Of a stretch of DNA of 64,000 nt, positions 23,103 to 55,355 are shown in pieces; positions within the stretch are counted from its first letter, which is position 1; each line of letters starts with the position of its first letter. This stretch comes from Vicinamibacterales bacterium (lineage in GTDB: Bacteria; Acidobacteriota; Vicinamibacteria; Vicinamibacterales; SCN-69-37). A program made the translations under genes and the position numbers. The notes below the pieces were generated by a model. The model saw nothing but the letters and a program-made list of their open reading frames with translations. It was not told the origin of the DNA and ran no database searches. The stretch spans positions 6,913-70,912 of the forward strand of contig JBBDWL010000129.1 of assembly GCA_040902895.1 (NCBI GenBank). The letters run 5' to 3'.

Positions 23103-23176
23103 GAGGGAGCGGAGCGGGGCGACGGGCCCCCGCGAGCGACCGAGCCAGGCGGCATGCAGGGGTCCCCGCCGGAGAG
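23103..23176 (+). repeat. GC-rich ~70-nt dispersed element, copy A (mreB-mreC spacer)
   Basis: GAGGGAGCGGAGCGGGGCGACGGGCCCCCGCGAGCGACCGAGCCAGGCGGCATGCAGGGGTCCCCGCCGGAGAG. It aligns with the copies at 28178, 52898 and 55275. Confidence 0.85.
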
Positions 23177-23185
23177 CTTAGACTG

Positions 23186-24034
23186 ATGTTGGAGATCCGT
23201 CGCAGAACCGGCTACCTGTTCCTCGCGGTCATGATGGGGCACGTGATTCTCATCTCGGCGCAGGTGCAGGATCAGGGCGGCGCGCGTCTGGCGTCGGCCG
23301 TTACCTTCCAGCTCGTCTCGCACATCCAGCTCGCGACGGCCCGGGCCGTCGACGGCATCCGCGGCTTTTTTCAAAATTATGTGTGGCTTCGCGGCGCCCG
23401 CGCCGAGAACGAGGCGCTGAAGCGGCAGGTCGTCGAGCTGGGGGGGCAGATCGAGGAACTGCGCGCGCGGACAACACAAGTCTCGAGCCTCGAGGAGCTG
23501 CTCAACCTCCGGACATCCCTGCCCATCGAAACCATCACCGCGCGCGTGATTGCCGGCGATCCGACGCCCGGCTTCCCGGCGGTCACCATCGACATGGGAT
23601 CGGGCGACGGCCTGCGTGCGAACATGGCGGTCATTGCGCCGCGCGGCGTCGTCGGGCGCATCTACGGCCGCCTCGAAGAGCACGCCGCGCAGGTGCAGCT
23701 GATTGTCGGACGCCGCGCCGGCGCCGCCGCCTATCTCGAACGAACCGGCGCGGGCGGCGTCATCGTGGGATCGAACGCCGATCCGCCGCTCGAGATGGAG
23801 GACGTCTCGAATCTCGTCGACGTGCAGACCGGCGACGTCGTCCTCACTTCCGGCCTTGACGGTATTTTCCCGCGCGGATTCATGATCGGACGCGTCGAAG
23901 CGGCCGAGCGCGGCAGCGGCACGTATCGCCTCATCGCGGTGCGGCCCACGGTCGACTTCTCGAATCTTCAATACGTGCTGGTTGTCACCGTTCCGCCGTC
24001 CGCGCGCTGGGCGCAGGAGGCCGAGAAGCAATGA
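23186..24034 (+). CDS. mreC: Rod shape-determining protein MreC
   Basis: 282 aa with an N-terminal TM helix and a coiled coil (ENEALKRQVVELGGQIEELRA). The beta-barrel domains contain VIAPRGVVGRI and GIFPRGFMIGRV. The position after mreB supports the call. Confidence 0.9.
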   Translation: MLEIRRRTGYLFLAVMMGHVILISAQVQDQGGARLASAVTFQLVSHIQLATARAVDGIRGFFQNYVWLRGARAENEALKRQVVELGGQIEELRARTTQVSSLEELLNLRTSLPIETITARVIAGDPTPGFPAVTIDMGSGDGLRANMAVIAPRGVVGRIYGRLEEHAAQVQLIVGRRAGAAAYLERTGAGGVIVGSNADPPLEMEDVSNLVDVQTGDVVLTSGLDGIFPRGFMIGRVEAAERGSGTYRLIAVRPTVDFSNLQYVLVVTVPPSARWAQEAEKQ

Positions 24035-24552
24035 GAGTGCTCGGCATCCTGCTGATCGTCGCGGCAGGGCTGGTGCTGCAGACCTCGCTGACCCGCTTCA
24101 CCATCGGCGGCGGCTGGGCGCTGGACGTGGTGCTCGTCGCCGTCTTTTTCTGTGCGCTCAGCTGGGGTCCTGCGGCCGGGCTGCTGGCCGGCACCGCCGG
24201 CGGTCTCGCGCAGGACGCGCTGTCGGGTGGCGTGCTCGGCGTAGGCGGGCTTTCGAAGACCCTGGTCGGGTTTCTGGCAGGCGCAATCGGCACCCAGTTC
24301 ATCGTCGCCCAGTTCTTCCCGCGCCTCGTCGTGTTCGTGATCGGGACGCTGGTGCATCAGTTCTGCTTCTGGGGCATCTATGCGCTGATCGATCAGAGGG
24401 CGCCGACTGTGCCGATGGGGAGCGTGATGATGCAGGCCTTCATCAACGCGGCCATCGGTTTGCTCGTATTCCAGATCATCGAGCTCGCGCCGGGCTTCGC
24501 GTCCCGCCGCCGAGCTCGCCGCTCCCGCCTCAGCAGCGGCGGACGGTGGTGA
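24031..24552 (+). CDS. mreD: Rod shape-determining protein MreD
   Basis: 173 aa polytopic membrane protein with an ATGA overlap with mreC. The call rests on position in the mreBCD order. Confidence 0.8.
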   Translation: MRVLGILLIVAAGLVLQTSLTRFTIGGGWALDVVLVAVFFCALSWGPAAGLLAGTAGGLAQDALSGGVLGVGGLSKTLVGFLAGAIGTQFIVAQFFPRLVVFVIGTLVHQFCFWGIYALIDQRAPTVPMGSVMMQAFINAAIGLLVFQIIELAPGFASRRRARRSRLSSGGRW

Positions 24553-24581
24553 ACATTGCTAAGATCGGTTCTTAGGGCTTT

Positions 24582-26561
24582 ATGACTTCGCCCGTACAGC
24601 ACGAAGAACGGCACAGTTTCTCGGTCCGCCTCACGGTGATGAAGGCGGCCGTCATCCTCGTCTTCTCCACACTTGCGGTGGCGTTCTGGTGGCTGCAGGT
24701 CGCCCGCCACGAAGAGTTTGCCGCCAAAGCCGACGCCAACCACATACGCACGATTACGCTGCGTGCGCCGCGCGGCGTGCTGTTCGATCGCGATGGCCAG
24801 ATCATGGTCGTCAACCAGGAGATTCAGAACATCTCCATCCTGCGCGAGCAGACCGAGAACATCGACGAGACGCTGGCGCGGCTTGCCGAAATCACGGGGG
24901 CCGATCTGGCGACGATGAAGGCCGCCATCGCCGAGCGCGAGAAAGAGCCGATCTTTCGTCCGATTCCGGTGATCGAAAACGCGACCCGCACGCAGGTCGC
25001 GCGCGTCAAGGCTCGGCTGATCGAAATTCCCGCGGTGATCGTGCAGGATGTGCCGACGCGCAAATATCCGGACGATCGCCTTGCCGCACATCTGTTCGGG
25101 TACGTCGGCGAAGTCAACGAGCAGCAGCTGGCGCGGCCTGAGTTCGCCACGCTCTCACCCGGTGACATCGTCGGGCATTCGGGCATCGAGCTCGCGCTCA
25201 ACTCGCTGCTGATGGGCATGGACGGGGCGCGGTACGTGGTCGTCGACAGCAAGGGACGTGAGATCGAGCATCTCGAAGATGAAGAGCAGGCCCCGGTCGA
25301 CGGGCAGCGCGTCAAACTGACAATCGATCTCGACATGCAGAAGGCGCTCGAAGACGCCTTCCGGCATTACAAGTACTGGGGAGCGGCGGCGTTCATCGAT
25401 CCGAACACCGGCGACGTGCTGGCGATGACCAGCCTGCCGGCCTACGATCCCAACGCATTCGCGGTCGGCATCGATCAGGCGACATGGACCTCGCTCAACA
25501 AGGATCCCCTGCTTCCGCTCACCAACCGTCTCATTCAGGGCACGTTCCCGCCCGGATCGACGTTCAAGATTCTGATGGCCGTCATCGGACTGCAGGAAAA
25601 ACTCATCACGCCGCAGACGCGCGTGCACTGTTCCGGCGGCGGCGTCTTCTGGGGTCGTCCCTTCCAGTGTCATCGCGTTCATGGCACCGTCGATCTGCGC
25701 CACGCCATCGAACAGTCGTGCAATGTGTACTTCTACACGATTGGCCAGAAGCTCGGCGACAAGATCGACATCGTGCACAAGTGGGGCGAGCGCCTCGGGC
25801 TCGTAGGCAAGACGGGCATCGACCTGCCGAACGAAGTCCCCGGATTCATCGCGTCGAGCGAGTGGGCCAAGAAGACACGCAAAGATGGCAAGTGGTACCC
25901 CGGCGAGACCATCTCGGTGGCAATCGGACAGGGCGCGGTGGCGGTCACGCCGATGAACCTCGCGATGTTCGCGGCGACCATTGCCAACGGCGGCACGTTG
26001 TTCAAGCCGAATCTTTTGAAGGAAGTCTTTGACGGCAAGGAATGGAAGAGCATTCCGCGTCCGGAGCCAAAAGCGAAAACGAAGATGGATCCGGAGCATG
26101 TGAAGGCGATTCGCGAAGGCATGTGGATGGTCGTCAATGGCGCCGGCACTGGCGGCCGCGCGCGCATGCCCGGCTACGACGTGGCCGGTAAGACCGGTAC
26201 GGCGCAGGCCAACATCTCGCTCGAGAACCGCGCGCGGCTGCGCGGCGAGGCGGCCCGCAGATTTCGCGATCACGGCTGGTGGATCTTCTTTGCGCCACAG
26301 GCCAAACCGGAAGTCGCCGGCGTGGTCTTCACGGAGAACTCGGAGCACGGATACCTCAGCGCGCCGATCGCGAAGCACGTGCTCGAGACCTATTTCGCCA
26401 AAAAAGAAAAGCGTCCGCTGCCGAAGCTCGTGCCGGAAGGGACGCCGACGGCGCCTGTGGCGCCGGCTGCGGCTACCGGCACTGCCACTCGTCCAGCACC
26501 GGGAACGGGCGGCCATTCGACTCCCTCCGGTCGCTCAGGGCAAGGCACGGGCGGACGATGA
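24582..26561 (+). CDS. mrdA: Penicillin-binding protein 2 (elongasome transpeptidase)
   Basis: 659 aa with an N-terminal TM helix. Motifs: RAPRGVLFDRDG, PPGSTFK (SxxK), SCN (SxN) and AGKTGTAQ (KTG). The tail is Pro/Gly-rich. Confidence 0.95.
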   Translation: MTSPVQHEERHSFSVRLTVMKAAVILVFSTLAVAFWWLQVARHEEFAAKADANHIRTITLRAPRGVLFDRDGQIMVVNQEIQNISILREQTENIDETLARLAEITGADLATMKAAIAEREKEPIFRPIPVIENATRTQVARVKARLIEIPAVIVQDVPTRKYPDDRLAAHLFGYVGEVNEQQLARPEFATLSPGDIVGHSGIELALNSLLMGMDGARYVVVDSKGREIEHLEDEEQAPVDGQRVKLTIDLDMQKALEDAFRHYKYWGAAAFIDPNTGDVLAMTSLPAYDPNAFAVGIDQATWTSLNKDPLLPLTNRLIQGTFPPGSTFKILMAVIGLQEKLITPQTRVHCSGGGVFWGRPFQCHRVHGTVDLRHAIEQSCNVYFYTIGQKLGDKIDIVHKWGERLGLVGKTGIDLPNEVPGFIASSEWAKKTRKDGKWYPGETISVAIGQGAVAVTPMNLAMFAATIANGGTLFKPNLLKEVFDGKEWKSIPRPEPKAKTKMDPEHVKAIREGMWMVVNGAGTGGRARMPGYDVAGKTGTAQANISLENRARLRGEAARRFRDHGWWIFFAPQAKPEVAGVVFTENSEHGYLSAPIAKHVLETYFAKKEKRPLPKLVPEGTPTAPVAPAAATGTATRPAPGTGGHSTPSGRSGQGTGGR

Positions 26562-27661
26562 TTTTCGAGCGGCGTCTGACGTTTCATCTCGACTGGGCCC
26601 TCATGGGCGCGATTCTCGCGCTGTCGGGCATGGGCCTGCTCATGATCTATTCCACGACCTACGATCTCGGCGCGAACCGCGCCGGCACCGAGTTCTGGAG
26701 ACAGCTGCAGGCGCTGGTGCTCGGTGTGGCGCTGATGGCGCTGTGCATGTCGATCGACTATCGATCGCTGACGCAGCGATCGCTTTTCATCTATGGCGGC
26801 GTGATCCTGCTCCTGGTCGCCGTGTTTTTCTTCGGCGCCCAGCGCGGCGGCGCCCGGCGCTGGCTTCCGCTCGGGGTCTTCAATCTTCAGCCGTCCGAAT
26901 TTGCGCGCGTCGCCATTGCTCTCGTCCTGGCAATGTACTTCGGCGAGAACCGCCGCGGCGCGCGCACGCCGTCAGACCTCCTGGTCGGCGCCGCCTTCAC
27001 ACTCGTCCCCTTTCTGCTCATCGCCCGCCAGCCCGATCTCGGCACCGCGGTCACGCTGCTGCCGGTCTATCTGGGCATCGTCTATCTTGCCGGCCTCCGC
27101 ATGCGGCTGCTTGCCGTCGCGGCGGTCATCGCGGTCTTGTTGTCTCCGCTCGCCTGGAACTACGCGCTGAAGCCGTACCAGAGAGAGCGCATCCAGACGT
27201 TCCTCGATCCCGAGCGCGAGCCTCGCGGCGCCGGGTATCAGCAGATTCAGGCGCGGGTCACGGTTGGGTCTGGAGGCCTGACCGGCAAGGGGTTCGGCGA
27301 GGGGACCCAGGGCGGCTACGGCTTCCTGCCCGTCGCCCACAACGATTTCGTATTTTCGGTGCTGGCAGAGGAGCACGGCTTCCTCGGCGTGCTCGTGGCG
27401 CTCGGCCTGTACCTTTTCGTGATCCTTCGAAGCCTCGATGCGGCACGTCTGGCCAAAGACAAGGTAGGGACCTACCTGGTCGTGGGCATTGTGTCGGGGT
27501 TTGCGTTCCAGGTGATGTACAACATCACCATGTCGGCGGGGCTGGCGCCCGTAAAAGGGCTGACGCTGCCGCTCATGAGTTACGGCGGGTCGTCGCTGAT
27601 TGCGACGTTCGCCGCGTTCGGTCTCATCCTGAATGTGCGGATGAGACGGTTTACCAACTAG
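26558..27661 (+). CDS. rodA: Rod shape-determining protein RodA (SEDS glycosyltransferase)
   Basis: Started at MIFERRLTFHLDWALMGAILALSGMGLLMIYS, with an ATGA overlap with mrdA. SEDS motifs are present: QPSEFAR, PDLGTA, and HNDFVFSVLAEEHGFLG. The upstream part of ORF 26279..27661 overlaps mrdA. Confidence 0.95.
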   Translation: MIFERRLTFHLDWALMGAILALSGMGLLMIYSTTYDLGANRAGTEFWRQLQALVLGVALMALCMSIDYRSLTQRSLFIYGGVILLLVAVFFFGAQRGGARRWLPLGVFNLQPSEFARVAIALVLAMYFGENRRGARTPSDLLVGAAFTLVPFLLIARQPDLGTAVTLLPVYLGIVYLAGLRMRLLAVAAVIAVLLSPLAWNYALKPYQRERIQTFLDPEREPRGAGYQQIQARVTVGSGGLTGKGFGEGTQGGYGFLPVAHNDFVFSVLAEEHGFLGVLVALGLYLFVILRSLDAARLAKDKVGTYLVVGIVSGFAFQVMYNITMSAGLAPVKGLTLPLMSYGGSSLIATFAAFGLILNVRMRRFTN

Positions 27662-27778
27662 TTGCGGAGTCGATGACGCTCGTCCTGACCCTCGCGCTGC
27701 TGGCCGCGCTCTTCGCCCTTGCGGGTGTGGTGCGCCCGGCGCGGGCCACGGCCGCGCCGCTCCGCCGGAGCTTTCCGC

Positions 27779-29458
27779 ATGAACAAGGAGATGATCGTCT
27801 CCTCGAACCCGCACGAGACGCGTGTGGCGATTCTCGAGGACGACCTGGTTGCCGAGATCTTCGTCGAGCGCGAGCATCAGCGCGGCGTGGTTGGCAACAT
27901 CTACAAGGGCCGGGTCTCGAAAGTGCTGCCCGGCATGCAGTCGGCGTTCGTTGACATCGGTCTCGAGCGCGACGCCTTCCTCTATGTCACCGACGTCATC
28001 AGCCCGGCCGACGCCGTCGAGCGCTTCGAAACCGACGAAGAACTCGAGCCGGTGATTGCGCCGACGCCCGCCGAGATGGAGGCGGCCGATGAAGCGCAGG
28101 ACGCGGCCGAGGAGTCGGAGCCGCCGGAGGTCGCACAGCCGGCACAGCCGGCGCCGCGCGCGCGCAGCGCGCGCCGCGAGGGAGCTGAGCGGGGTGCTGG
28201 GGCCCCGCGAGCGACCGAGCCGGGGTTCGGGGCGGAGCCCCGTAGAAAGATCGAGGAGCTGCTCAAGGAAGGGCAGGAGATCCTCGTCCAGATCGTCAAG
28301 GAGCCGCTCGGCACCAAGGGCGCGCGCATCACCTCGCATCTCAGCCTGCCGGGCCGCTTCCTCGTCTTCATGCCGACCGTCGATCACGTCGGCGTCTCGC
28401 GCAAGATCGAGTCGCGCGAGGAGCGCGCGCGGCTGCGCGGCCTCGTGAAGACCTTCCGGCAGGAGCACGACTTCGGCGGCGGCGTGATCATCCGCACCGC
28501 GGCGGCGAGCCGTCCCGAGGCCGACATCAACTCGGACCTCGGCTACTTCCACGAGATCTGGAAAGAGATTCGCGTGAAGATGGAGAGCTCGCGCGCGCCC
28601 GCGGTGATCTTCCGCGAGCAGAGCCTGGTCGCCAAGCTGCTGCGCGATCTGCTCACCGAACAATACTCCGCGATTCGCATCGACAACGAGGCCGAATACC
28701 GCCGCGTCGTGGCGCTCATCGAGCGCTTCATGCCGAACATGCTGCCGCGCATCAAACACTACACGCGCGACTTTCCGATCTTCGAGGAGTACGGCGTGCA
28801 GGGCGAGATCGACAAGGCCCTGCGCAGCAAGGTGTGGCTCAAGTCGGGCGGCTACATCGTGATCAACCAGACGGAGGCCCTCGTCGCGATCGACGTCAAC
28901 ACGGGGCGCTACGTCGGCAAGAAGACCGGTCGGCTCGAAGACACCATCCTCAAAACCAATCTCGAAGCGGTGAAGGAGATCGTGCGCCAGATCCGACTGC
29001 GCGATCTGGGCGGCATCATCGTGCTCGATCTGATCGACATGGAGGAGAAGAAGAATCGCCTCAAGGTGTTTCAGGCGGTCGAGCAGGAGCTGCGCAAGGA
29101 CCGCGCGCCGTCGAAGGCCATCCAGGTCTCCGACTTCGGCCTCGTCATCGTCACGCGCAAGCGCGTCAAGCAGAGCCTCGAGCGGCAGCTCACCGAGCCG
29201 TGCCCGTACTGCGCCGGCTCGGGCACGATCAAGGCGACGTCGATGATCTGCTACGAGATTCTGACCGAGGTGCGGAAGATGAGCCCCGATCTCGACGGCC
29301 AGGGCCTCGTGCTGCGCGTGAACCCCGACATCGCGCGCGCGCTGCGCGAGGAAGAGCGCCTGCTGTTCCGCGAGCTGCAGGACTCAGTCGGCAAGGCCGT
29401 CACGCTCAAGTCAGACGGGCAGCTCCATCACGAACAGTTTGATCTGATGGCACTCTGA
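27779..29458 (+). CDS. rng: Ribonuclease G (Rne/Rng family) with a long insertion after the S1 domain
   Basis: Started at MNKEMIVSSNPHETRVAILEDD. The S1 domain reads GNIYKGRVSKVLPGMQSAFVDIG. The catalytic core includes GQEILVQIVKEPLGTKGARITSHLSLPGRFLVFMP, ALVAIDVNTG and CPYCAGSG. The position after mreBCD-mrdA-rodA supports the call. Confidence 0.9.
   Translation: MNKEMIVSSNPHETRVAILEDDLVAEIFVEREHQRGVVGNIYKGRVSKVLPGMQSAFVDIGLERDAFLYVTDVISPADAVERFETDEELEPVIAPTPAEMEAADEAQDAAEESEPPEVAQPAQPAPRARSARREGAERGAGAPRATEPGFGAEPRRKIEELLKEGQEILVQIVKEPLGTKGARITSHLSLPGRFLVFMPTVDHVGVSRKIESREERARLRGLVKTFRQEHDFGGGVIIRTAAASRPEADINSDLGYFHEIWKEIRVKMESSRAPAVIFREQSLVAKLLRDLLTEQYSAIRIDNEAEYRRVVALIERFMPNMLPRIKHYTRDFPIFEEYGVQGEIDKALRSKVWLKSGGYIVINQTEALVAIDVNTGRYVGKKTGRLEDTILKTNLEAVKEIVRQIRLRDLGGIIVLDLIDMEEKKNRLKVFQAVEQELRKDRAPSKAIQVSDFGLVIVTRKRVKQSLERQLTEPCPYCAGSGTIKATSMICYEILTEVRKMSPDLDGQGLVLRVNPDIARALREEERLLFRELQDSVGKAVTLKSDGQLHHEQFDLMAL
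28178..28245 (+). repeat. GC-rich dispersed element, copy B (inside the rng coding sequence, in frame)
   Basis: GAGGGAGCTGAGCGGGGTGCTGGGGCCCCGCGAGCGACCGAGCCGGGGTTCGGGGCGGAGCCCCGTAG. The 5' two-thirds are near-identical to copies A, C and D, while the 3' hairpin is a variant (GGGGC GGA GCCCC). It is translated as EGAERGAGAPRATEPGFGAEPR. Confidence 0.75.
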
Positions 29459-29468
29459 TCAGCCCAAT

Positions 29469-29595
29469 GTAAATTGTAAATGGTAAATAGCATTGTCTAT
29501 TGGGCTATTGCTGCCGCTTCAGTGAAGCACAACAGCGCCACAGCGTAACGTCGCAATTGCAAAATTTACAATGCTATTTACCATTTACAATTTAC
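29469..29595. repeat. Perfect 28-bp AT-rich inverted repeat with a 71-nt spacer, in the rng 3' region
   Basis: Arm 1 (29469-29496) is GTAAATTGTAAATGGTAAATAGCATTGT. Arm 2 (29568-29595) is ACAATGCTATTTACCATTTACAATTTAC, its exact reverse complement. Each arm is itself three GTAAATN heptamers. A nested alternative stem is AGCCCAAT (29461-68) with ATTGGGCT (29499-506). This is the most AT-rich stretch I noticed in the window. Confidence 0.9.
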
Positions 29596-29619
29596 CTTTC
29601 TGATTGTTGGTTTAAGAAC

Positions 29620-29647
29620 AAAAGGCCGGCAGGAAGCCGGCCTTTTG
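29620..29647. terminator. Bidirectional rho-independent terminator
   Basis: ACAAAA GGCCGGC AGGAA GCCGGCC TTTTG: a 7-bp GC stem and 5-nt loop, with an A-tract upstream and a T-tract downstream. It lies between convergent rng (+) and the 29676..30188 gene (-). Confidence 0.8.
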
Positions 29648-29675
29648 ATTGTCTATTGAACGTTCTAGCCCCCCG

Positions 29676-33710: not shown

Positions 33711-33804
33711 GAAATTCTACCCGGCTTATTTTCCCGTCCTTCGAGTCATCTCGCGCGGTTGTGTCATGACTCTTTGGACACAAAAATAAGCCGGGTAGAA
33801 TTTC
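33711..33804. repeat. Perfect 22-bp inverted repeat with a nested 7-bp hairpin, between the beta-barrel gene stop and the ATL gene start
   Basis: The arms are GAAATTCTACCCGGCTTATTTT and AAAATAAGCCGGGTAGAATTTC, separated by about 50 nt. The spacer holds GAGTCAT..ATGACTC. The distal arm overlaps the stop codon at 33803-05. The proximal arm ends about 7 nt from the ATL GTG start. My nucleotide count here disagreed with the ORF track by 1, so I calibrated to the track; coordinates are +/-1-2 nt. Confidence 0.8.
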
Positions 33805-38287: not shown

Positions 38288-39643
38288 CTATCCGAGCATG
38301 CGCGCCGGATCGAGCCCGACGGTCGCCGGATCGACAACGGAGGCCACGGTCAGATGCTCGCCGGCTTCCTGCCAGAGATCGATCTCCTCGCCGCCGATGA
38401 CCGGTGCCGCCGCCGCATCGAAGAGCACCCGGACGGTCGGCCGATCCGGGCTTGGCGCGTGAATGCCCGTGACGACCGCCATCCGGCCGTCCGACAGCGC
38501 GACCAGCGTGCCGGGCGGGTAGATGCCCATCAATTGCACGAAGCGGCGCACGAGATGCTGATCGAACTGCATGCCGTCGTTCCGCTTCAGCACGGCAAGG
38601 ATGCGATCGGTCGGAAACGCTTCCTGGTATTCCCGCTGCGATCGCATGGCATCGTACACGTCGGCCACGCTGCACAGCATCGTGGCGAGATTGAGCGTGT
38701 CGCGCGTCACGCCCTCGGGGTATCCCTGGCCGTCGAGCCGCAGATGGTGCTCGAACGCCACGACCGGTGAGAGCGCCGGCATCTCGGGCGTCTGCCGCAG
38801 CAGCGCGGCGCCGTCGATGGTGTGCCGCTTCATGATGGCGAACTCGCGATCGTCGAGCTTCGACGGCTTGTTGAGGATGTCTTTCGGCGTTTTCACCTTG
38901 CCGATGTCGTGCATCAGCGCGGCCAGCCCGAACTCGCGCAAGAGCCGTCCTTCGATGCCGAGCGCGCGCGCCTGGGCCATCGTGAGAATCGACACGTTCA
39001 CCATGTGCGTGAAGGTGTAGTTGTCGTACTTCTTCATCGCCGCAAGCGCGATGAGCGCCGTGCGATTCTCGGTGACGGCGTCCGCGAGGTTTTCGATGGA
39101 GGCGGCCGCCGCTTTGACATCAGGGCGTCCTTCCATCAGCGCCGACTCCCACACGGTCTCGGCCTGTCCCACCGCGTCGCCGTACAGCCGCTGGAGCGTC
39201 CCCCGATCCCCGCCTCCCGGCGCCGGCGCATCATCGTCGCTCGCCAGCCGGCCGATGCGGATGTTGGCGGAGTTCAGGGTCAAGGCGGTGTCGGTGCCGG
39301 CAATCGATTTCGCGAGCGCGGCCATGAAGGTTTCGAGCTCCCGCGGCGCGGCGCCGCGGCTGATCGCGATGCGCTCGATGCCCGCGCGTTTGAGCCGATC
39401 GATCAGCTCGATCATCTGTCCGGCCAGGCGGGGCAGCGGCAGGTCGCCCACCACGACCTGACCGGCGACGAGACCAATCACGACCGTCGGGTTTTGCTGA
39501 TGCAGCGTCTCGAGCGCGGCGAGAAGTCCGGCCGTCTGCCGCGCGACGATCGGATGCGACGGCGCGTAGAGCTGCGCGGCGCGCAGGCCGCCTGACAGCC
39601 GGCGCACCAGTTCCTCGGACGCGGCGACGATCTGATCGCTCAT
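38288..39643 (-). CDS. HD-GYP domain phosphodiesterase (copy 2) with the cluster-specific N-terminal module
   Basis: 451 aa. Motifs: KKYDNYTFTHMVNVS, LAALMHDIGKVKTP and AFEHHLRLDGQGYPEG, followed by a C-terminal GIYPPGTLVAL beta domain. The N-terminus carries AAQLYAPSHPIV..VVIGLV. Confidence 0.9.
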   Translation of the reverse strand: MSDQIVAASEELVRRLSGGLRAAQLYAPSHPIVARQTAGLLAALETLHQQNPTVVIGLVAGQVVVGDLPLPRLAGQMIELIDRLKRAGIERIAISRGAAPRELETFMAALAKSIAGTDTALTLNSANIRIGRLASDDDAPAPGGGDRGTLQRLYGDAVGQAETVWESALMEGRPDVKAAAASIENLADAVTENRTALIALAAMKKYDNYTFTHMVNVSILTMAQARALGIEGRLLREFGLAALMHDIGKVKTPKDILNKPSKLDDREFAIMKRHTIDGAALLRQTPEMPALSPVVAFEHHLRLDGQGYPEGVTRDTLNLATMLCSVADVYDAMRSQREYQEAFPTDRILAVLKRNDGMQFDQHLVRRFVQLMGIYPPGTLVALSDGRMAVVTGIHAPSPDRPTVRVLFDAAAAPVIGGEEIDLWQEAGEHLTVASVVDPATVGLDPARMLG

Positions 39644-41824: not shown

Positions 41825-43165
41825 TCACAGATAGGTCAGCGGATCGATCGGCACCGTATCCGGATCGACCGCTTCCACGACGGCCAGCGCATCACGCTCC
41901 CAGGTGTTCACGAGCGTCTGCTGTTCGACGGCGTTCCCCAGTTTGTCGAGCAGCACCTTGACCTGCGGCCGGAAGGGATCGGCGGGATGTTCCTTCGTCA
42001 CGACCCCGACTGCCTGGCTGTCGAGCCGAACCAGCGTGCCGACGGGGTAGAGCCCGACCAGATTCACGAATCGGCGCAGCAGCGTGCGATCGTACGCGGG
42101 GCTCTCCTGCTGCAGCATGATCGACCGGATGCGCTCGCTCGGCAGGCCCTCGCGATACACACGGTTGCTGCGCAGCGCGTCGAAGACGTCGGCAATGGTC
42201 ACCACCATCGTGCAGACGTTCAGACTGCGCGAGCCGACGTTCTCCGGATAGCCGCTGAAGTCCTTCTTCAGGTGATGCTCGAACGCGACGATGGGTGCGA
42301 GCGCCGGCATGCCGGGCGTGCGGCGAAGGATGTGCGCGCCGTCGACCACGTGGCGCTGCATGATCGTGAATTCTTCCTTCGTCAGCCGATCCGGCTTGTT
42401 GAGCACCTCGAGCGGCGTGTGGACCTTCCCGATGTCGTGCATCAGCGCCGCAAGTCCGAACTCGCGCAGCATCGCCCCTTCGATGTTCAGCGAGCGCGCC
42501 TGCGCCATCGAGAGCACCGAGACGTTCACCATGTGCGTGAACGTGTAGTTGTCGTACCGTTTGAGGGCCGTCAGCGCCATCAGCGACGTGCGGTCCTGTT
42601 GAATCAGCTTCGCGAGGCTGTCGATGATCTTCCGCGCGGCATCCGGATTGGGCTGGTCGCCGGCCTGGGCCGTTTCCCAGATGGCCTGGGCGGTCTGCAC
42701 GGCATCGGTGTACACGCGCCGCGCCGCGGCGACGCCGGTCGAGACCGGCTCGTCTTCCTCGACGTTCAATTTGCCGACGACAATCCGCGCGACGCCGCGG
42801 GCCGCCAGGCGCTCGACAAAGGTGTCCGCATCGCCTCGCGTGCCGAGCTCCGCTGAGAGTGACGCAAGCTCGCTGCGCGTGACGCCGCGATTGATGGTGA
42901 GTTTCTCGAGGCCGCGTTCCTTGAGCAGCCGCGCGAGTCCGACGTTCGACGCGCTGCCCGCGAGCGGCGTGCCGTCGGCCACGAAGTCGTCGCCGACCAG
43001 CCCGATCACAACCGACGGCTGCGCCGCGAGCATCGCCGTGGCGAGCTCGGCAAGCGCATCAAGACTGCGGCCCACCAGCGCGTGCTTCGGCGAGTAGAGC
43101 GCCTGCGCGCGAATCGTCGACGCCAGGCGCCGCAGCAGCTCTTCGACCTGGCGCTTCTCAGCCAC
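41825..43165 (-). CDS. HD-GYP domain phosphodiesterase (copy 1) with the cluster-specific N-terminal module
   Basis: 446 aa. Motifs: KRYDNYTFTHMVNVS, LAALMHDIGKVHTP and AFEHHLKKDFSGYPEN. The N-terminus carries AQALYSPKHALV..VVIGLV. Confidence 0.9.
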   Translation of the reverse strand: MAEKRQVEELLRRLASTIRAQALYSPKHALVGRSLDALAELATAMLAAQPSVVIGLVGDDFVADGTPLAGSASNVGLARLLKERGLEKLTINRGVTRSELASLSAELGTRGDADTFVERLAARGVARIVVGKLNVEEDEPVSTGVAAARRVYTDAVQTAQAIWETAQAGDQPNPDAARKIIDSLAKLIQQDRTSLMALTALKRYDNYTFTHMVNVSVLSMAQARSLNIEGAMLREFGLAALMHDIGKVHTPLEVLNKPDRLTKEEFTIMQRHVVDGAHILRRTPGMPALAPIVAFEHHLKKDFSGYPENVGSRSLNVCTMVVTIADVFDALRSNRVYREGLPSERIRSIMLQQESPAYDRTLLRRFVNLVGLYPVGTLVRLDSQAVGVVTKEHPADPFRPQVKVLLDKLGNAVEQQTLVNTWERDALAVVEAVDPDTVPIDPLTYL

Positions 43166-48981: not shown

Positions 48982-49378
48982 TCCACACATCGAAGAGCGG
49001 CTGGTGAGCGCGGCGAGGGATGCACGGACTCGCGCGATCGCGCCATATTCGCACTTTCAAGTTGGCGCGGCGCTCTTGCTTGCCGACGGCGGCATCGTAA
49101 GCGGCTGCAACATCGAGAACGCGACATACGGACTGACCATCTGCGCCGAACGTGTGGCTCTTGTAAAGGCGTTGTCGGAAGGGAAGCGCGACTTCGTGGC
49201 CCTGGTGGTGTCGGCTGACGCCGCACGGCCGACGCCGCCGTGCGGCGCGTGCCGTCAGCTCCTATGGGAATACTGCGGCGACATCCCGGTTATCATGGCC
49301 AACGCGCGCGAGGTGACGATGCGCACGTCGCTCGGCGTGCTGCTGCCGGAACCGTTCGGGCCTGAAAATCTGAAATAG
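48968..49378 (+). CDS. cdd: Cytidine deaminase
   Basis: 136 aa with APYSHFQVGAAL, the zinc ligands CAERVAL and PCGACRQ. The start is TTG 48968 (14-nt overlap with punA) or GTG 49004. Confidence 0.9.
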   Translation: MSAPDPHIEERLVSAARDARTRAIAPYSHFQVGAALLLADGGIVSGCNIENATYGLTICAERVALVKALSEGKRDFVALVVSADAARPTPPCGACRQLLWEYCGDIPVIMANAREVTMRTSLGVLLPEPFGPENLK

Positions 49379-49403
49379 CGCAGTCACGACGCCGGAGGGC
49401 CTC

Positions 49404-51842
49404 ATGTTACTCGGCCACGACCTTCGTCACTCCGTGCGGGCGCTCCGCAGATCGCCTTGGTACGCCGCAACCGTCGTCGCCGTCATCTCGCTCAGCATCG
49501 CCATGATGACAGCCGTTTTTGCGGTTGTTGACGGCGTGCTGTTCCGGCCGCTGCCGTATCCGGATTCGGAGGACGTGTTCGCGGTAGGTGGCGTGTTCGA
49601 AGGCGACCAGGAGCCGCTCGAGCGGCTCGTCGGCATGATCTCGCCGCGTGAGCTGAATGCGTGGCGGTCATCCGTTCCCGATGTGCCCATCACGCTGCTT
49701 GGCTATTCGAGCGTGACGCTGGAGGACGGAAGCTTCGCGCTCGCCGCAACCGTGGACCGGCAGTTTTTCGATGTGTTCGGGGTGCGTCTGCTGGTCGGCG
49801 GCTTCGCGGAGGCAGACGTCGCCGGACCAGTGCCGGTGCGGCCGATTCTCATCAGCCACGCGCTCTGGCAGAGCCATTTCAACGGCGACCCGGATATCGT
49901 CGGACGAATCTTCACGCCGCACGGCTTCAGGAGTGTTCCGCATCGGATCGCGGGCGTGCTCGATCGCGACGGCTTCGTGCCGCCGCTGCCAGGCCGCCCG
50001 GGTTCGTGGGTCCGGCAGCGTTCGCGGATCGACGCGCTGTTTCCGAACACGCTCGCGCCAGGCTTCGGTGAGCGCATCGGTGTGGCGTTCGCGCGCGTGC
50101 CTGCCGCGCGCGCCGCGGCCGTTGAATCGGTGCTCGACGCGGCTGTCATCGCCTATCGATCCACGGTGCCGCCGCCCCGCCGGCCGTTCACCTCGGTCGC
50201 ACAGCGTCGAGGGATGGGCGCGTACGACGGTGCGTCCTTCGTCCCGATCGCCGAGTTTGCCACCGCGCGTCAGCGGCCGATTCTCGCAATCGTCTTCGCC
50301 ACCGCCGTTGGACTCGCGCTGCTCGTCATGTTGAACGCCGGCGCGCTCGCGACGGCCCGCGCGCAACAGCGGCTGCGGGAGATGGCGCTGCGCCGCTCGC
50401 TCGGCGCACGCACGCGCGATCTGCTGCGCACCGCTCTGGTCGAGCAGAGCCTGTTGACAGCGGCGGGCGCGGCTCTCGGGCTCCTGCTTGCGCCGTCGCT
50501 GCTGCGTCTGATCGCGCGGGAGCTGCCGGCGGGACTGGAACTGATCAAGGAGGTACGTGTCGACTGGCGCGCGGCGTCGGTCGTCGCGATGGTCGCGGCG
50601 GCAATGGCGGCTGGCGTCGCAGTCTTGAGCGCGCGGTTCGCCGTGCGACACGCGGCGCTGAATCCGCTGCTGGCCATGGGGCCCGGCGGCGGCCGCGCAG
50701 GCGCACGGGTCGCGCGCGTTCTCGTGGCGGGGCAGATCGCCCTGGCATTCGGCCTTGTGCTGGGCGGAGCGCTCTTTCTGAGGAGCCTGGGCCTCGTCTG
50801 GAGCGAAGACACGGGGCTGCGAACTCGCGATGCCGCGCTGCTCCGTGTCTCGTTCGCGGAACGGGCCGACCCTTCGCGGCAGCTCCAGCTGCTCGAGACG
50901 GTACGCGGCGTCCCGGGCGTCGCGGCCGCTGGAGCCGTCGACAGATCGATCCTGGAGAACTTCGACGGCAGTTCATCTGTGTTCCGGGGGCCTGACGGTG
51001 GCCCGCCGCCGGCTCCGGTACCGTTGGTGGCGAGGGTGACTTCCGGTTTCTTCGACGCCGCCGGCATCAGGCTGATCGCGGGGCGGCTGCCGACCGACGC
51101 CGAGCTCGACGCCGGAGCGCCGGTGATCGCCGTCAGCGAAACATTGGCGGACCGCTATTGGCCGGATGAAGATCCGATCGGCCGATCGCTCCGATCCGGA
51201 CGGCTCGAAAGCAGAGTCGTCGGTGTCGTGCGCGACGCGCGGCTCGTCGCCGTGGACGCCGCCCCGACCGGGACCATCTTCGCCGGTCTGGATCGCGACG
51301 CTGCCTTCATGAGGTTGTTCGTTGCGTTCCGCGGGCAGGCGGATCTGGTGCTCACGCGGCTCGTTGCGCAGGTTCCGGAAGCCGACCCGCTCGCCCGCGT
51401 CATCGAGGCGAAGATGATCGATGAGATTGCCGCGGAGTCCGTGCGTCCCCGCACGCTCAGCGCCATTGCGGCGTCCGGCTTCGCTCTGGGCGCGCTGGTC
51501 CTGACTGCGATCGGCCTGTTCGGCCTGGCTGCACAAACGACCGGCAGGCGCACTCGAGAGATGGGCATCCGGCTCGCGCTCGGTGATACCCCGGCGGGCC
51601 TCATTCGCCTGGTCGCCCGAGGGCAGGCCGCGACGCTGCTTGGAGGCCTGGCGGCGGGCGCGCTACTGGCAGCGGCCCTTGTGCGGCTCATCTCGTCGTA
51701 CCTCTATGGCGTGACCGCGTACGACGCCACGACATGGATGCTGGCGGCTTCCGTGGTCTCCGTGGCTGCCGCCGTGGGTACGCTCGTGCCGGCTCTGCGC
51801 GCAAGTGGCGTCAGCCCGGTCGAAGCGCTGCGGGCGGAGTAG
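49404..51842 (+). CDS. ADOP-family (MacB/FtsX-type) ABC permease with no adjacent ATPase
   Basis: 812 aa. It has HDLRHSVRALRRSPWYAATVVAVISLSIAMMTAVFAVVDGVLFRPLPYPDSE and two FtsX 4-TM halves. The C-terminal end reads PALRASGVSPVEALRAE. Confidence 0.85.
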   Translation: MLLGHDLRHSVRALRRSPWYAATVVAVISLSIAMMTAVFAVVDGVLFRPLPYPDSEDVFAVGGVFEGDQEPLERLVGMISPRELNAWRSSVPDVPITLLGYSSVTLEDGSFALAATVDRQFFDVFGVRLLVGGFAEADVAGPVPVRPILISHALWQSHFNGDPDIVGRIFTPHGFRSVPHRIAGVLDRDGFVPPLPGRPGSWVRQRSRIDALFPNTLAPGFGERIGVAFARVPAARAAAVESVLDAAVIAYRSTVPPPRRPFTSVAQRRGMGAYDGASFVPIAEFATARQRPILAIVFATAVGLALLVMLNAGALATARAQQRLREMALRRSLGARTRDLLRTALVEQSLLTAAGAALGLLLAPSLLRLIARELPAGLELIKEVRVDWRAASVVAMVAAAMAAGVAVLSARFAVRHAALNPLLAMGPGGGRAGARVARVLVAGQIALAFGLVLGGALFLRSLGLVWSEDTGLRTRDAALLRVSFAERADPSRQLQLLETVRGVPGVAAAGAVDRSILENFDGSSSVFRGPDGGPPPAPVPLVARVTSGFFDAAGIRLIAGRLPTDAELDAGAPVIAVSETLADRYWPDEDPIGRSLRSGRLESRVVGVVRDARLVAVDAAPTGTIFAGLDRDAAFMRLFVAFRGQADLVLTRLVAQVPEADPLARVIEAKMIDEIAAESVRPRTLSAIAASGFALGALVLTAIGLFGLAAQTTGRRTREMGIRLALGDTPAGLIRLVARGQAATLLGGLAAGALLAAALVRLISSYLYGVTAYDATTWMLAASVVSVAAAVGTLVPALRASGVSPVEALRAE

Positions 51843-51865
51843 AACTCCGAACTATCATTTAGTTA

Positions 51866-52981
51866 ATGCTCCCGACCATCGCCTGGGAAGAGGACGCGAT
51901 CGTGATGATCGATCAGCGGAAGCTGCCCGGCCAGGAAGTCTACGTGCGCTGCACGACCGCCGCGGAAGTCGCGAAAGCCATCCGCACGATGGTGATCCGC
52001 GGCGCTCCGGCGATTGGCGTCGCCGCCGCAATGGGCCTCGCGATCGGGATGCGGCGCAGCAAATCGACCGGCACGCGCAACTTCACCGCGGAGTTCACGA
52101 GGCTGTGCCAGCTGATGGGCGAGACGCGGCCGACCGCCGTGAATCTCTTCTGGGCCATCGAGCGCATGAAGCACTCGTTGTCCCAAGGGCTGCTCGCCGG
52201 CGAATCCACCGAACAGTTGACGGCGCGGCTCGAGCGCGAGGCGCGCGCGATTCATGATGAAGACATTGCGTGCTGCCGGGCGATGGGCCGGCACGGCGCG
52301 GAGCTCATTGGTCAGACCTCCCGCATCCTCACGCATTGCAACGCCGGGGCACTCGCAACCGCGGGCTATGGATCGGCCCTCGGCGTCGTCCGGGCCGCGG
52401 TGGAGCAGGGCAAGCATGTCGCGGTGTTTGCCGACGAGACACGGCCGTTTCTACAGGGCGCGCGGCTCACCGCATGGGAGCTGATGCGTGACGGCATCGA
52501 TACGACTGTCATAACGGAAGGCATGGCCGGACCATTGATGCGCAGCGGCGGCATCGATCTCGTCGTCGTCGGCGCCGACCGCATCGCCGCTAATGGCGAC
52601 GTCGCCAACAAAATCGGGACGTATACCGTTGCCGTGATGGCGCACGAACACGGTATTCCTTTCTACGTGGCTGCGCCGTCCTCGACGATCGATCTCGGCA
52701 CGCCCGATGGCGACGGCATCCCGATCGAGCAGCGAAATCCAAAAGAAATCTCGCACCTGGGTCCCACGCGGCTGACGCCGGAGGGCGCGAAGATCTGGAA
52801 TCCGGCGTTCGACGTGACGCCGCACCGTTACATCGCCGGCATCATCACGGAAAAGGGCATTCTGCGCCCGCCGTACGCAGAGAGCCTGAAGGCCGCGCAG
52901 GGAGCGGAGCGGAGCATCGGGGCCCCGCGAGCGACCGAGCCAGGCGGGGTGCAGGGGACCCCGCCGGAAATTAATCGATGA
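51866..52981 (+). CDS. mtnA: S-methyl-5-thioribose-1-phosphate isomerase, with a repeat-encoded C-terminal tail
   Basis: 371 aa. Motifs: IDQRKLP, VIRGAPAIGVAAA, THCNAGALAT, DETRPFLQGARLTAWEL, VGADRIAANGDVANKIGTY and NPAFDVTP. The last ~25 aa ([26 protein letters not shown]) come from repeat copy C. Confidence 0.9.
   Translation: MLPTIAWEEDAIVMIDQRKLPGQEVYVRCTTAAEVAKAIRTMVIRGAPAIGVAAAMGLAIGMRRSKSTGTRNFTAEFTRLCQLMGETRPTAVNLFWAIERMKHSLSQGLLAGESTEQLTARLEREARAIHDEDIACCRAMGRHGAELIGQTSRILTHCNAGALATAGYGSALGVVRAAVEQGKHVAVFADETRPFLQGARLTAWELMRDGIDTTVITEGMAGPLMRSGGIDLVVVGADRIAANGDVANKIGTYTVAVMAHEHGIPFYVAAPSSTIDLGTPDGDGIPIEQRNPKEISHLGPTRLTPEGAKIWNPAFDVTPHRYIAGIITEKGILRPPYAESLKAAQGAERSIGAPRATEPGGVQGTPPEINR
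52898..52970 (+). repeat. GC-rich ~70-nt dispersed element, copy C (3' end of mtnA)
   Basis: CAGGGAGCGGAGCGGAGCATCGGGGCCCCGCGAGCGACCGAGCCAGGCGGGGTGCAGGGGACCCCGCCGGAAA. It contains the hairpin GGCGGGGT GCAGGGG ACCCCGCC. Confidence 0.85.
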
Positions 52982-54030
52982 ATGTCCTCGGCATCGAGAC
53001 ATCGTGCGATGAGACGGCCGCGGCGGTTGTTGCGTCGACAGGCGATCTGCGCAAGCCGTGGCAGATGCTCTCGAACGTCATCGCGTCACAGGTCGATATC
53101 CATCGCGAGTGGGGCGGCGTCGTGCCCGAGCTTGCCTCGCGGCAGCATCTGCGCGACATCTGCGGCGTGGTCGAACGCGCGCTTGGCGACGCGCGGCTTT
53201 CGCTCGATGACGTGAATGCGATTGCGGTGACGCGCGGCCCAGGGCTGGTGGGATCGCTGCTGGTCGGCATCTCGTTCGCGAAAGCGGTGGCCGCCGCCCG
53301 CGGTCTGCCCATCGTCGGTGTGCATCATCTGGCCGGGCATATCGAATCGATATTTCTCGAGCACGGCGCCATCGAGCTTCCCGCGGTGGTGCTCGTCGTA
53401 TCGGGCGGCCATACCAGCCTGTACGTCGTGCCATCACCGGGCACCTACGAACTGGTGGGACGCACGCGTGACGATGCGGCGGGCGAGGCGTATGACAAAG
53501 TGGCGCGCGTCATGGGGCTGGGGTATCCCGGAGGCCCCGCGCTCGACCGCGCGGCGGGCACCGGCGACGACACGGCCGTGAAGTTCACGATGCCGCGCAT
53601 GACGCATCCCGATCGCAACGATCCGCGCGCCGCGCTCGCCGTGGAGTTCAGCTTCAGCGGACTCAAGACAGCTGTCGTGCGGCACATCGAGAAACGCGGC
53701 GGCGCGCCGCTCTCGGATTCGGAGCTGGCCGATCTTGCCGCGAGCTTTCAGCGCGTGGTCGTCGATACGGTGCTGACGCGTACGCTCGAGATGGCTGAAC
53801 GGCTTGGAGCGAAGAGCATCGGCATTGCCGGCGGTGTGTCGGCCAACAGCCGCCTGCGCCGCGATGCGGAGACACGCGCCGCGGCCGCCGGCATCCCGGT
53901 CTTCATCCCGCGGCTGTCGCTCTCGACGGATAACGCGGCGATGATCGCGGCCGCAGGCCTGCGCAAACTCGAGCTCGGCCAACCCGGCCCGGCCGACTTC
54001 ACAGTCGCCGCAAGCCTTGCGATCGAGTAA
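52978..54030 (+). CDS. tsaD: tRNA N6-adenosine threonylcarbamoyltransferase
   Basis: 350 aa with MNVLGIETSCDETAAAVV, GVHHLAGH, SGGHT, GEAYDKVAR.MGLGYPGGP and GGVSAN. Confidence 0.95.
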   Translation: MNVLGIETSCDETAAAVVASTGDLRKPWQMLSNVIASQVDIHREWGGVVPELASRQHLRDICGVVERALGDARLSLDDVNAIAVTRGPGLVGSLLVGISFAKAVAAARGLPIVGVHHLAGHIESIFLEHGAIELPAVVLVVSGGHTSLYVVPSPGTYELVGRTRDDAAGEAYDKVARVMGLGYPGGPALDRAAGTGDDTAVKFTMPRMTHPDRNDPRAALAVEFSFSGLKTAVVRHIEKRGGAPLSDSELADLAASFQRVVVDTVLTRTLEMAERLGAKSIGIAGGVSANSRLRRDAETRAAAAGIPVFIPRLSLSTDNAAMIAAAGLRKLELGQPGPADFTVAASLAIE

Positions 54031-54447
54031 ATGCTCGTCCACACCGACTATCTCTTCTTCACCACCAAGCAGCGGCAGGAATTCATCCGCATCACCGATG
54101 ACATCCAGCGCATCGTCGACGCCAGCGGCGTCGCCGAGGGCACGGTGCTCGTCTCGGCGATGCACATCACGGCCGGCGTCTATGTGAATGACTGGGAGAG
54201 CGGGCTGATCCACGACTTCCAGGTGTGGCTCGAGACGCTCGCGCCGTCGGGGCTCGACTATCGCCATCATCAGACAGGTGAAGACAACGCCGACGCGCAT
54301 CTCAAGCGCACGATCATGGGACACCAGGTCACGCTGCCCATCACGAAGGGCCGGCTCGATCTCGGTCCCTGGGAGCAGATCTTCTATGCCGAGTTCGATG
54401 GCCAGCGCCGCAAGCGTGTCGTGGTGAAGGTCATGGGCATCGCGTGA
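54031..54447 (+). CDS. YjbQ/UPF0047 family protein (secondary thiamine-phosphate synthase-like)
   Basis: 138 aa with [24 protein letters not shown] and [22 protein letters not shown]. Confidence 0.85.
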
Positions 54448-55355
54448 CGCACGCGCCGACCGATCCCTTCGACATCGTTCGCCGCCTGTATCGCGCCGTC
54501 AACGAATCGGATCTGGAGACGATCGCGGGTCTGCATGCGGCCGATGCGGTGGCCGAGCAGGTGTTCGACGGCACGTTCGTTGTCGAAGGCCGGGAGGCCA
54601 TTGCTGCCGCCTACGCCGCCGGGCCGCCGCATCGAACAATAGAGGTACGCACCATCGGCGGCATCGAGACCGGCTGGGGCTGGGTGCAGGCCGACTGGCT
54701 CGAAAAGGGGGACGGGTCTCATTTTCGCGCCGGCCACAGTCATTTCCTGATCGAGAACGCGCGCATCCGGCGCCATCGGCGCGTCGTCACAGCCGAAGGG
54801 GATTCGCGCGAGCGCGTCGAGCTGCCGCCGCCGGGATCGCGGCGCTATCCGGCACGACCCATCGCCGGCGTCGGTGCCGTGATATTGATCGACGGCGGGC
54901 GGCCCACGCCTGGCGTCGTGCTGATCAAGCGGCTGCACGAACCCCTGGCGGGACACTGGAGCCTGCCAGGCGGCACGCTCGACCTTGGTGAAACACTCGA
55001 ATCAGCTGTCGCGCGTGAAGCGCTGGAAGAGACCGGCCTCATCGTCGACGTGGGACCCATCGTTGACGTCTTCGATCGCATCCTGCTCGACGAGGCGGGG
55101 AAGGTCCGCTACCATTTCGTGCTCATCGACTATCTATGCCGCCCAATCGGCGGCGAGCTGCGCGCCGGGTCGGACGCCGCGGACGTCGCGATCGCCGAAC
55201 CTGATGAACTCGAGAACTATCGCCTCACCGGAAAGGCCTTCGACGTGATTCAGAAGGCGTTGATGATGAGTCGCGAACGAACGGAGCGGGGCGATGGGGC
55301 CCCGCGAGTGAGTGAGCCAGGCGGGGTGCAGGGGACCCCGCCGAGAGAAAAATGA
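54444..55355 (+). CDS. Fusion of an NTF2/SnoaL-like domain with a NUDIX hydrolase, with a repeat-encoded tail
   Basis: 303 aa. The N-terminal ~120 aa look SnoaL/NTF2-like ([26 protein letters not shown]). The NUDIX box is [24 protein letters not shown]. The tail [25 protein letters not shown] comes from repeat copy D. Confidence 0.8.
55275..55347 (+). repeat. GC-rich ~70-nt dispersed element, copy D (3' end of the NUDIX gene)
   Basis: GAACGAACGGAGCGGGGCGATGGGGCCCCGCGAGTGAGTGAGCCAGGCGGGGTGCAGGGGACCCCGCCGAGAG. Confidence 0.85.

Follow-up and report, generated by a model that had tools for sequence, protein, structure and literature searches.

Four similar GC-rich segments of about 70 nucleotides (nt), here called copies A to D, lie in or between + strand genes in a 64,000-nt stretch of contig JBBDWL010000129.1 from a Vicinamibacterales bacterium of the Acidobacteriota (the window, meaning the whole stretch analysed). 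They raise the question of whether they are signals that the transcripts need or repeats that the host tolerates. An earlier note, made from the sequence alone, had described them as four copies of one element at gene junctions, sharing orientation and reading frame, and had likened them to repetitive extragenic palindromes (REP) or miniature inverted-repeat transposable elements (MITE). We found that the window copies are members of a large family of small structured repeats in soil Acidobacteria (Vicinamibacterales). With a probability of about 0.6, we consider that this is a family of non-autonomous repeats native to Vicinamibacterales that survive where they are least harmful. The observation in the earlier note was largely right and its interpretation partly so.

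All four sequences quoted for the copies were found in place (Table 1). A search for their 23-nt core with up to 3 mismatches returned 4 matches, all on the + strand, against 0.01 expected, and 0 of 100 shuffles gave four. The copies are alignable over ~70 nt, a repeat finder grouped them as one 70-nt family, and an nhmmer profile made from copies A-D detected each of them at E < 1e-15. The count of four holds for full copies, to which a fifth, hairpin-only fragment on the - strand has to be added; it lies inside the - strand peptidase S58 gene (2882-4006), is co-oriented with it, and is read in a frame other than that of A-D (…GAARGAGVPAV…). Window genes were called with a codon model trained on the window and were checked against Pfam and homologues. 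As had been described, the four full copies are on the sense strand of + strand genes and share one phase relative to the upstream open reading frame (ORF), so that the GAG of GAGCC coincides with a codon. Copies A, C and D are indeed at gene junctions (mreB/mreC, mtnA/tsaD and SnoaL-NUDIX/HD), while copy B is located ~130 codons into the RNase E/G-type gene Rne/Rng, in a variable loop ahead of KIEELLKEGQEILVQIVKEPLG, where its in-frame translation reads ...REGAERGAGAPRATEPGFGAEPRR-KIEELL. Copy C makes up the final ~25 codons of mtnA (51866-52981) by read-through, and the mtnA TGA (52979-52981) overlaps the tsaD ATG (52978-52980). Copy D lengthens the SnoaL-NUDIX gene (54444-55355) in the same way, to a TGA that overlaps the ATG (55352) of the HD-domain gene. 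Copy A is intergenic, two bases past the mreB stop, so its frame has no translational meaning. The frame used in copy D is the sole one without stop codons; all three frames are open in copies A and C.

The family proved to be widespread within one lineage. At least 116 loci with the 19-nt core were found in species-representative genomes, nearly all of them Vicinamibacterales or Acidobacteria gp6 metagenome-assembled genomes, and the few matches to this core in other phyla are due to chance. When metagenomes were scanned for the 3′ hairpin that A, C and D have in common, at least 120 further loci with 134 copies came to light, and nhmmer matches to the family numbered about 126. The unit is a mosaic of ~75-130 nt that consists of a 5′ rod-like hairpin and one of two alternative 3′ hairpins, with optional 5′ hairpins. 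The single element type of the earlier note therefore comprises two subtypes, with A, C and D belonging to T2 and copy B to the longer T1, which carries an extra 5′ GC hairpin. T1 is the commonest form, with the consensus [t]TAG-GCGCGC-acg-GCGCGCC-tGCGAGGGAGCGGAGCGGGGCgnaGGGGtCCCCGCGAGCGACCGAGCC-GGGGT-[GTGGGGC-gGA-GCCCCAC]-gtTAG; its 3′ hairpin is GGGGTnnGGGGC-GGA-GCCCCnn, with GTTAG or GTGAG next. T2 is without the 5′ GC hairpin, has the 3′ end GGCGGGGTGCAGGGGnCCCCGCC with a 3′ hairpin that is a paralogue of the central hairpin, and adds a purine-rich tail. Metagenome T2 hairpins are mostly attached to a variant arm, GCGAACGGAGCGGAGCGAGCnGCGAAGnGCGAGCGnAGCGnAGTGAGCC, and copy D stands between both arms.

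Alignment of 133 T2 copies revealed that conservation starts sharply at GCGA and runs through GCCGAT. The T2 tail of ~13 nt is A/G-rich, with 50-75% A at several positions in DNA of 66% G+C. Its profile is unchanged far from gene boundaries and in coding regions, ruling out that the tail is mere flanking ribosome-binding-site DNA. An ATG or ATGA is not part of the element either, as ATG occurs in only ~1/3 of T2 tails and the ATGA at mtnA-tsaD is ancestral. Copies are commonly arrayed head-to-tail, with periods of ~33-195 nt; nested insertions and other 5′ modules are common too, and module exchange between units is seen across the family. At L115 (1166-1636) there are three identical 195-nt periods, each with one T1 copy and ~100 nt of coding-like sequence, and at L169 (653-750) the T2 hairpin alone is repeated at a 33-nt period. 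A second repeated module of ~48 nt, GCCTCCGCCAAGGCTACGGCGGCCCGCCGTAGCTTCAGCGAAGGCGGG, is nested in the element (L084, L105, L116) or lies 5′ of it (L013, L094, L113), and a third, GCGAGCCGGGGCCCCCACGATGCGGTTTGTGCATCGTGGGGTGGGACGGAGCGG, lies 5′ of the element; the two modules resemble further repeat families that these genomes carry.

The conserved part of the unit is folded in a characteristic way. The 5′ arm is a ~48-nt rod-like hairpin built of Watson-Crick steps of two bases with GA/GA or G(N)A/G(N)A purine loops between them, and the tip of the rod is often C-GAA-G. Of the two hairpins proposed by the earlier note, CGGGGC-N6-GCCCCG is only the tip of this interrupted stem, and the second is degraded in copy A. 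Covariation was checked on a gap-free alignment of 31 distinct 73-nt copies, with the arm lying outside the search pattern. The pairing covaries: paired cells amounted to 94.7% in the 31 copies compared with 25-50% when the partners were slid, and the covariation score was 0.163 versus 0.072 in shuffles, with 0 of 500 shuffles reaching it. Step pairs switch between GC and AU (21:9), between CG and UA (22:7), and among GC, AU, CG and UA, and the 3′ stem of T1 occurs in five Watson-Crick versions (GT/AC, CC/GG, TC/GA, AT/AT and CT/AG); all of these are counts of copies and not of independent events. Hardly any variation was seen in the purine loops, and G·U pairs were more frequent than A·C (15 versus 4), indicating that the rod structure belongs to the purine-rich strand only. 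Covariation and pairing fit RNA or single-stranded DNA equally well. Stable single-stranded DNA has tandem G·A pairs and C-GAA-G tips at least as typically as RNA does, and the strand specificity of the hairpin, together with these G·A pairs, suggests that it is recognized in the form of a single-stranded nucleic acid.

We then compared the orientation of the two subtypes with that of the neighbouring genes. At 101 scorable T2 sites the downstream gene was co-oriented 45:3 and the upstream gene 53:13; with orthologous sites clustered, the ratios were 36:3 (p = 4e-8) and 40:12, respectively. The flanking genes of T2 were (+,+) at 29 sites versus (-,-) at 1. T1 copies between co-directional genes were divided between 25 sense and 19 antisense (p = 0.45), and the two subtypes differed significantly (Fisher test, p = 1e-4). 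As T1 comes largely from the same genome group, it controls for a general gene-strand bias. The co-orientation noticed for the four window copies thus extends to T2 and not to T1. The start codon downstream of the T2 hairpin is mostly 9-31 nt away (mode 9-10 nt). On the other side, the stop codon of the upstream gene tends to precede the left end by 0-16 nt, and most copies begin past this stop. An ATGA 9 nt past the hairpin was seen at 9 of the 101 sites, and 13 T2 sites adjoin a tRNA gene, 9-14 nt from the hairpin, with the tRNA in either orientation. For T1, copies with a convergent downstream gene had the stop of that gene ~0-9 nt from the 3′ hairpin end, often as the TTA/CTA of a GTTAG-type end (L005, L012, L013, L014, L031, L039, L046, L047, L051, L055, L077, L089, L091, L100, L101, L103 and others), and it may be that the end of the element provides this stop codon or adjoins it.

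The tolerance of translation that had been proposed was borne out, since the element is present within reading frames. At six sites the upstream frame runs through the element to a stop that lies at the following start codon or close to it, and a 4-nt overlap between stop and following ATG is seen in window copies C and D and at L149 and L199. In a small sample in which some sites are orthologous, translated copies favoured the A-D frame by 12:4:1, or 10:4:1 without the window copies (p about 0.005-0.015; 0.015 versus uniform), whereas copies lying after the upstream stop were uniform in phase (8:9:11). The least-used frame is the one most often stop-free (72 of 80 elements), so weighting for openness strengthens the preference (p about 0.001-0.005). 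The shared frame of the earlier note is therefore found again among translated copies, where a preference is likely although not settled, and is absent from untranslated ones.

Comparison of orthologous sites demonstrated that the element comes and goes. The MtnA homologues nearest to that of the window (up to 91% identity) are 345-352 aa long and without the tail, and in the DNA of three of them the site is empty. At one empty site (L237) mtnA ends ...GCG ATG CCG GAA CCC GCG CCA TGA, with the identical ATGA overlap to tsaD; relative to it, the window mtnA has 3 nt replaced by 66 nt five codons before the stop, a net gain of 63 nt. Because the empty-site gene already has ATGA, the overlap is ancestral, and because the length of the insertion is a multiple of three, it was preserved. 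Translational coupling would thus be kept at this junction as the earlier note had supposed, by an overlap that is not borne by the element. More pairs of a filled and an empty site emerged from an all-against-all flank comparison (L038/L223, L050/L206, L044/L120 and L165/L012); in L165 the insertion is in a coding region and amounts to about +84 nt. Some sites are occupied in several genomes. At trmD-rplS, T1 is present in L052 and T2 in L152, L207 and L228, and in L199 an element likewise occupies the NUDIX-HD site of copy D. What was found in the RNase G loop is T1 in the window and its nearest relatives, a T2-like peptide in a protein 87% identical to that of the window, the other arm variant in P0176, P0220 and L219, and nothing in most of 120 homologues. 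Orthologous sites with different subtypes may have been hit again, or their residents may have been overwritten by other family members. Two candidate targets, 'TTAG...TTAG' for T1 and 'TGA...ATGA' for T2, were dropped, each being true for a minority of copies only. At the same RNase G loop, which is hypervariable, homologues P0153, P0156, P0161, P0196 and P0197 of other Vicinamibacterales carry another recurrent peptide, (D/E)PS(T/A)GSGSPRA(A/T)SRG, which probably stems from yet another repeat.

Family size, anatomy, covariation, presence or absence at orthologous sites, and the statistics of orientation and position were all observed directly, and on them we base the following proposal for a non-autonomous repeat. 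The units, which come and go at orthologous sites, line up head to tail in arrays and swap modules, would owe their mobility to an enzyme acting on single strands (HUH-type). A selective filter would then leave as survivors the insertions in short spacers, in disordered protein loops and at C-terminal ends, and insertion lengths that keep the frame would keep existing stop/start overlaps. The polarity of T2 could be caused by the same filter, as the sense orientation would give the next start codon an unstructured, purine-rich tail resembling a ribosome-binding site (GGAGAGAAAATG in D-like copies), and an inverted T2 would place a pyrimidine tract and a hairpin before it. Alternatively, a strand-specific insertion target would give the same pattern.

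Several results weigh against this proposal. The window copies are only 81-90% alike, so nothing points to very recent movement. Six filled/empty comparisons revealed neither a target-site duplication nor a fixed target motif, and different subtypes at one site could mean long residence with conversion instead of repeated insertion. No Y1/RAYT gene (RAYT, REP-associated tyrosine transposase) was found beside an element when three Y1 transposase sequences were used as phmmer queries against the ORFs of ~1.5 Mb of flanking DNA around about 250 copies; the queries matched only an IS200-type gene at L085, a chance locus unrelated to the family, and one further ORF, whose weak match was false. Furthermore, neither the frame preference of translated copies nor the exact abutment of tRNA genes in both orientations is obviously explained by a purely selfish element, and the structure is conserved so strongly that a host function would be consistent with it as well.

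Such a function is the basis of the main alternative, which we consider possible but unlikely and in which the element would be a transcription-polar cis-acting RNA module kept by the host. Its hairpins and tail would be recognized on the mRNA, for example by an RNase, by the ribosome during standby or re-initiation, or by an RNA-binding protein. In this way they would control how transcripts are processed, how stable they are or how translation is coupled where genes of an operon meet. The strand-specific covarying structure with invariant non-canonical loops is consistent with this, as are the co-orientation of T2 with transcription (36:3), its placement between a stop and a start that mostly follows 9-31 nt past the hairpin, the favoured frame of translated copies, and persistence across species at trmD-rplS, NUDIX-HD and the RNase G loop. 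However, T1 has the same arm and no orientation bias (25:19), T2 adjoins tRNA genes in both orientations, including copies convergent with the tRNA, and in close relatives the element is missing from mtnA-tsaD and other sites, where nothing visible takes its place. Copies in coding regions of unrelated proteins also argue against a host module, tandem arrays and swapped modules are what selfish repeats typically show, and the G·A pairs and C-GAA-G tips are no less characteristic of stable single-stranded DNA.

A narrower version, confined to T2, appears doubtful to us. T2 would be a portable intercistronic RNA cassette in which a host factor binds the rod and the conserved loop of the second hairpin, and the purine tail would pass on the ribosome, or an enzyme of RNA processing, to the gene or tRNA that follows. 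If true, this would be a genome-wide, repeat-borne system setting expression at operon junctions and tRNA ends in Vicinamibacterales.

It is improbable that the family is a strict REP/REPIN system (REPIN, REP doublets forming hairpins), in which each genome would have, at another place, one RAYT gene (Y1 HUH transposase) whose product recognizes the hairpins as single-stranded DNA and copies them. The hairpins are GC-rich, imperfect and strand-specific with compensatory changes, the copies are mostly extragenic, numerous and restricted to one lineage, and RAYT-like genes have been reported in other Acidobacteria (PMC3733652). Against this, no conserved GTAG/CGTC tag stands beside the hairpins: the four bases before the 5′ GC hairpin were heterogeneous in 87 copies (CTTA, CCAG, GCTA, CCTA and others), and the T2 ends had no tag of the GTAG/CGTC type. 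There were no inverted doublets among the multi-copy sites, where arrays were head-to-tail, and the flank search found no RAYT beside any of the about 250 copies. Without a Y1 gene in ~1.5 Mb of flanks, a GTAG tag or inverted doublets, strict REP/RAYT membership is unsupported. In addition, the polarity of T2 tracks genes and not replication, with the - strand fragment of the window lying in a - strand gene. The earlier description as REP/MITE-like holds in that this is a dispersed REP-like repeat family; it is not MITE-like because terminal inverted repeats and target-site duplications are absent, the ends being unrelated (5′ GCGA(A/G)(C/G)GAGCGG and 3′ hairpin plus tail) and the filled/empty comparisons giving no duplication. 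The view that there is no discrete element, only GC-rich (GAGCG)n-like low complexity or a shared protein motif, draws on the abundant GAGCG-like repeats of the 5′ arm and the three open frames of copies A and C, but it is already refuted by the 4 matches against 0.01 expected, the sharp borders in 133 aligned copies, the mostly untranslated copies of uniform phase, the presence or absence at orthologous sites and the covarying pairs.

The elements were also examined for known families and signals. Rfam 15, searched with gathering and E-value thresholds in the window and 16 element-bearing loci, gave tRNAs and sub-threshold noise only. No copy was flagged by a terminator scan or a sigma-70 promoter scan; an intrinsic terminator was rejected, since there is no T run and the hairpin is followed by an A/G-rich tail in T2 and by GTTAG/GTGAG in T1. 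Two element patterns had no match in viral contigs. An integron attC site was rejected by inspection, as the neighbours are housekeeping genes (mreB/C, mtnA/tsaD, trmD/rplS and RNase G) and the consensus has no GTTRRRY/RYYYAAC ends. CsrA-type GGA loops and K-turns were set aside because the defining geometry or sequence was not present. Literature searches for repeats in Acidobacteria or Vicinamibacteria found no description of the family, which is apparently undescribed, although of an already known kind.

Table 1. Positions of the element copies and their parts in the 64,000-nt window
Feature	Position	Strand	Description
Copy A	23101-23185	+	T2 subtype; intergenic, mreB/mreC
Copy A 5′ arm	23101-23146	+	GCGAGGGAGCGG...GAGCC
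Copy A 3′ hairpin	23148-23170	+	Degraded
Copy A tail	23171-23185	+	Purine-rich, GGAGAGCTTAGACTG
Copy A borders	23097-23099; 23186		mreB stop TAG; mreC ATG at element end
Copy B	28156-28246	+	T1, commoner subtype; within Rne/Rng ribonuclease gene (27779-29458)
Copy B extra 5′ GC hairpin	28156-28174	+	
Copy B arm	28176-28221	+	GCGAGGGAGCTG...GAGCC
Copy B 3′ hairpin	28222-28242	+	GGGGTTCGGGGCGGAGCCCCG
Copy C	52895-52977	+	T2; mtnA/tsaD
Copy C arm	52895-52944	+	
Copy C 3′ hairpin	52943-52965	+	GGCGGGGTGCAGGGGACCCCGCC
Copy C tail	52966-52977	+	
Copy D	55273-55351	+	T2; intermediate between two 5′-arm variants
Copy D arm	55273-55318	+	GCGAACGAACGGAGCGGGGC...GAGTGAGTGAGCC
Copy D hairpin	55320-55342	+	
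Copy D tail	55343-55351	+	GAGAGAAAA
Fifth, partial copy	3249-3282	-	GAGCGG-CGCGGGGTGCAGGGGTCCCCGCC; T2 hairpin alone; recovered by repeat finder and nhmmer profile

The window contains other repeated sequences. An AT-rich inverted repeat, AATGTAAATTGTAAATGGTAAATAGC..., at 29466-29598 (46-nt arms, 87% complementary, 41 nt apart) lies directly past the RNase G gene and ahead of a strong terminator-like hairpin (29619-29647); its composition is very unusual for a window of 66% G+C. Intergenic inverted repeats at 33711-33804 (39-nt arms, 85% complementary, 16 nt apart) and 10195-10391 (30-nt arms, 90%, 137 nt apart) appear unrelated to the element. On the - strand, 38502-39069 and 42030-42597, 3528 nt apart, are 71-80% identical in several segments (206 nt at 80%), and the genes beside them are probably paralogous. 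A similar pair of ABC-transporter ATPase sequences is located at 56105-56518 and 57870-58280.

Vicinamibacterales are abundant soil bacteria with few cultured members, and their repeat content is apparently unpublished. The element has practical consequences, as within predicted genes or at start codons it will mislead gene callers into false C-terminal tails, N-terminal extensions and 'low-complexity' protein segments, and it will break short-read assemblies, several loci ending in an element. The rod with its G·A loops is a clean covarying motif for which a binding partner, either a transposase or an RNA-binding protein, could be sought.

Among known repeats, the behaviour of T2 seems closest to that of the mycobacterial interspersed repetitive units (MIRU), reportedly described by Supply et al. 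in 1997. Both are found in operon spacers as units of 40-100 nt co-oriented with the flanking genes, often in head-to-tail arrays, and at start codons; the 4-nt overlap of a stop with the following ATG in some copies may be a further likeness. MIRU insert at start codons and contain an internal ORF coupled to the gene at -4 nt, so that harm is minimized by translational coupling (PMC12548453). The likeness is one of behaviour and not of membership, because the hosts here are Acidobacteriota and there is no known sequence relationship. Unlike MIRU, the present family has ATGA at the tail in only about 9 of 101 sites, the overlap at mtnA-tsaD being ancestral, and it includes a non-polar T1, conspicuous covarying hairpins and tRNA-adjacent copies. 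It would represent a second, independent case of MIRU-like insertion at coupled junctions and could be used to test how much hairpin structure is tolerated there.

In its mosaic make-up the family resembles the bacterial interspersed mosaic elements (BIME) and REP of enterobacteria and pseudomonads, sharing GC-rich imperfect palindromes, high copy number, mostly extragenic location, combination with other short motifs and compensatory stem changes. It differs from BIME/REP in its longer units (about 75-130 nt) and in the strong transcriptional polarity of one subtype, and from REP/REPIN-RAYT systems in the missing tag and inverted doublets; no RAYT was found nearby. Rickettsia palindromic elements (RPE), which have a CGTC tag (PMC3733652), are likewise inserted in frame in unrelated genes, where they contribute a stretch of peptide in regions that tolerate it, as is seen here in the RNase G loop, at the MtnA and NUDIX C-termini and in L165; most copies of the present family are intergenic, however, and sequence, structure and host are different, with no CGTC tag. 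These copies also invite comparison with other small intergenic repeats. The modular BOX elements of Streptococcus pneumoniae and the hairpin-forming Correia elements of Neisseria are co-transcribed with their neighbours and can affect expression. Correia elements have terminal inverted repeats and a TA duplication, and BOX modules are unrelated in sequence to this family; neither is known to show the stop-to-start placement or the G·A-loop rod described here. The rod with G·A loops, the polarity of a single subtype and the abutment of tRNA genes are the unusual features of this family.

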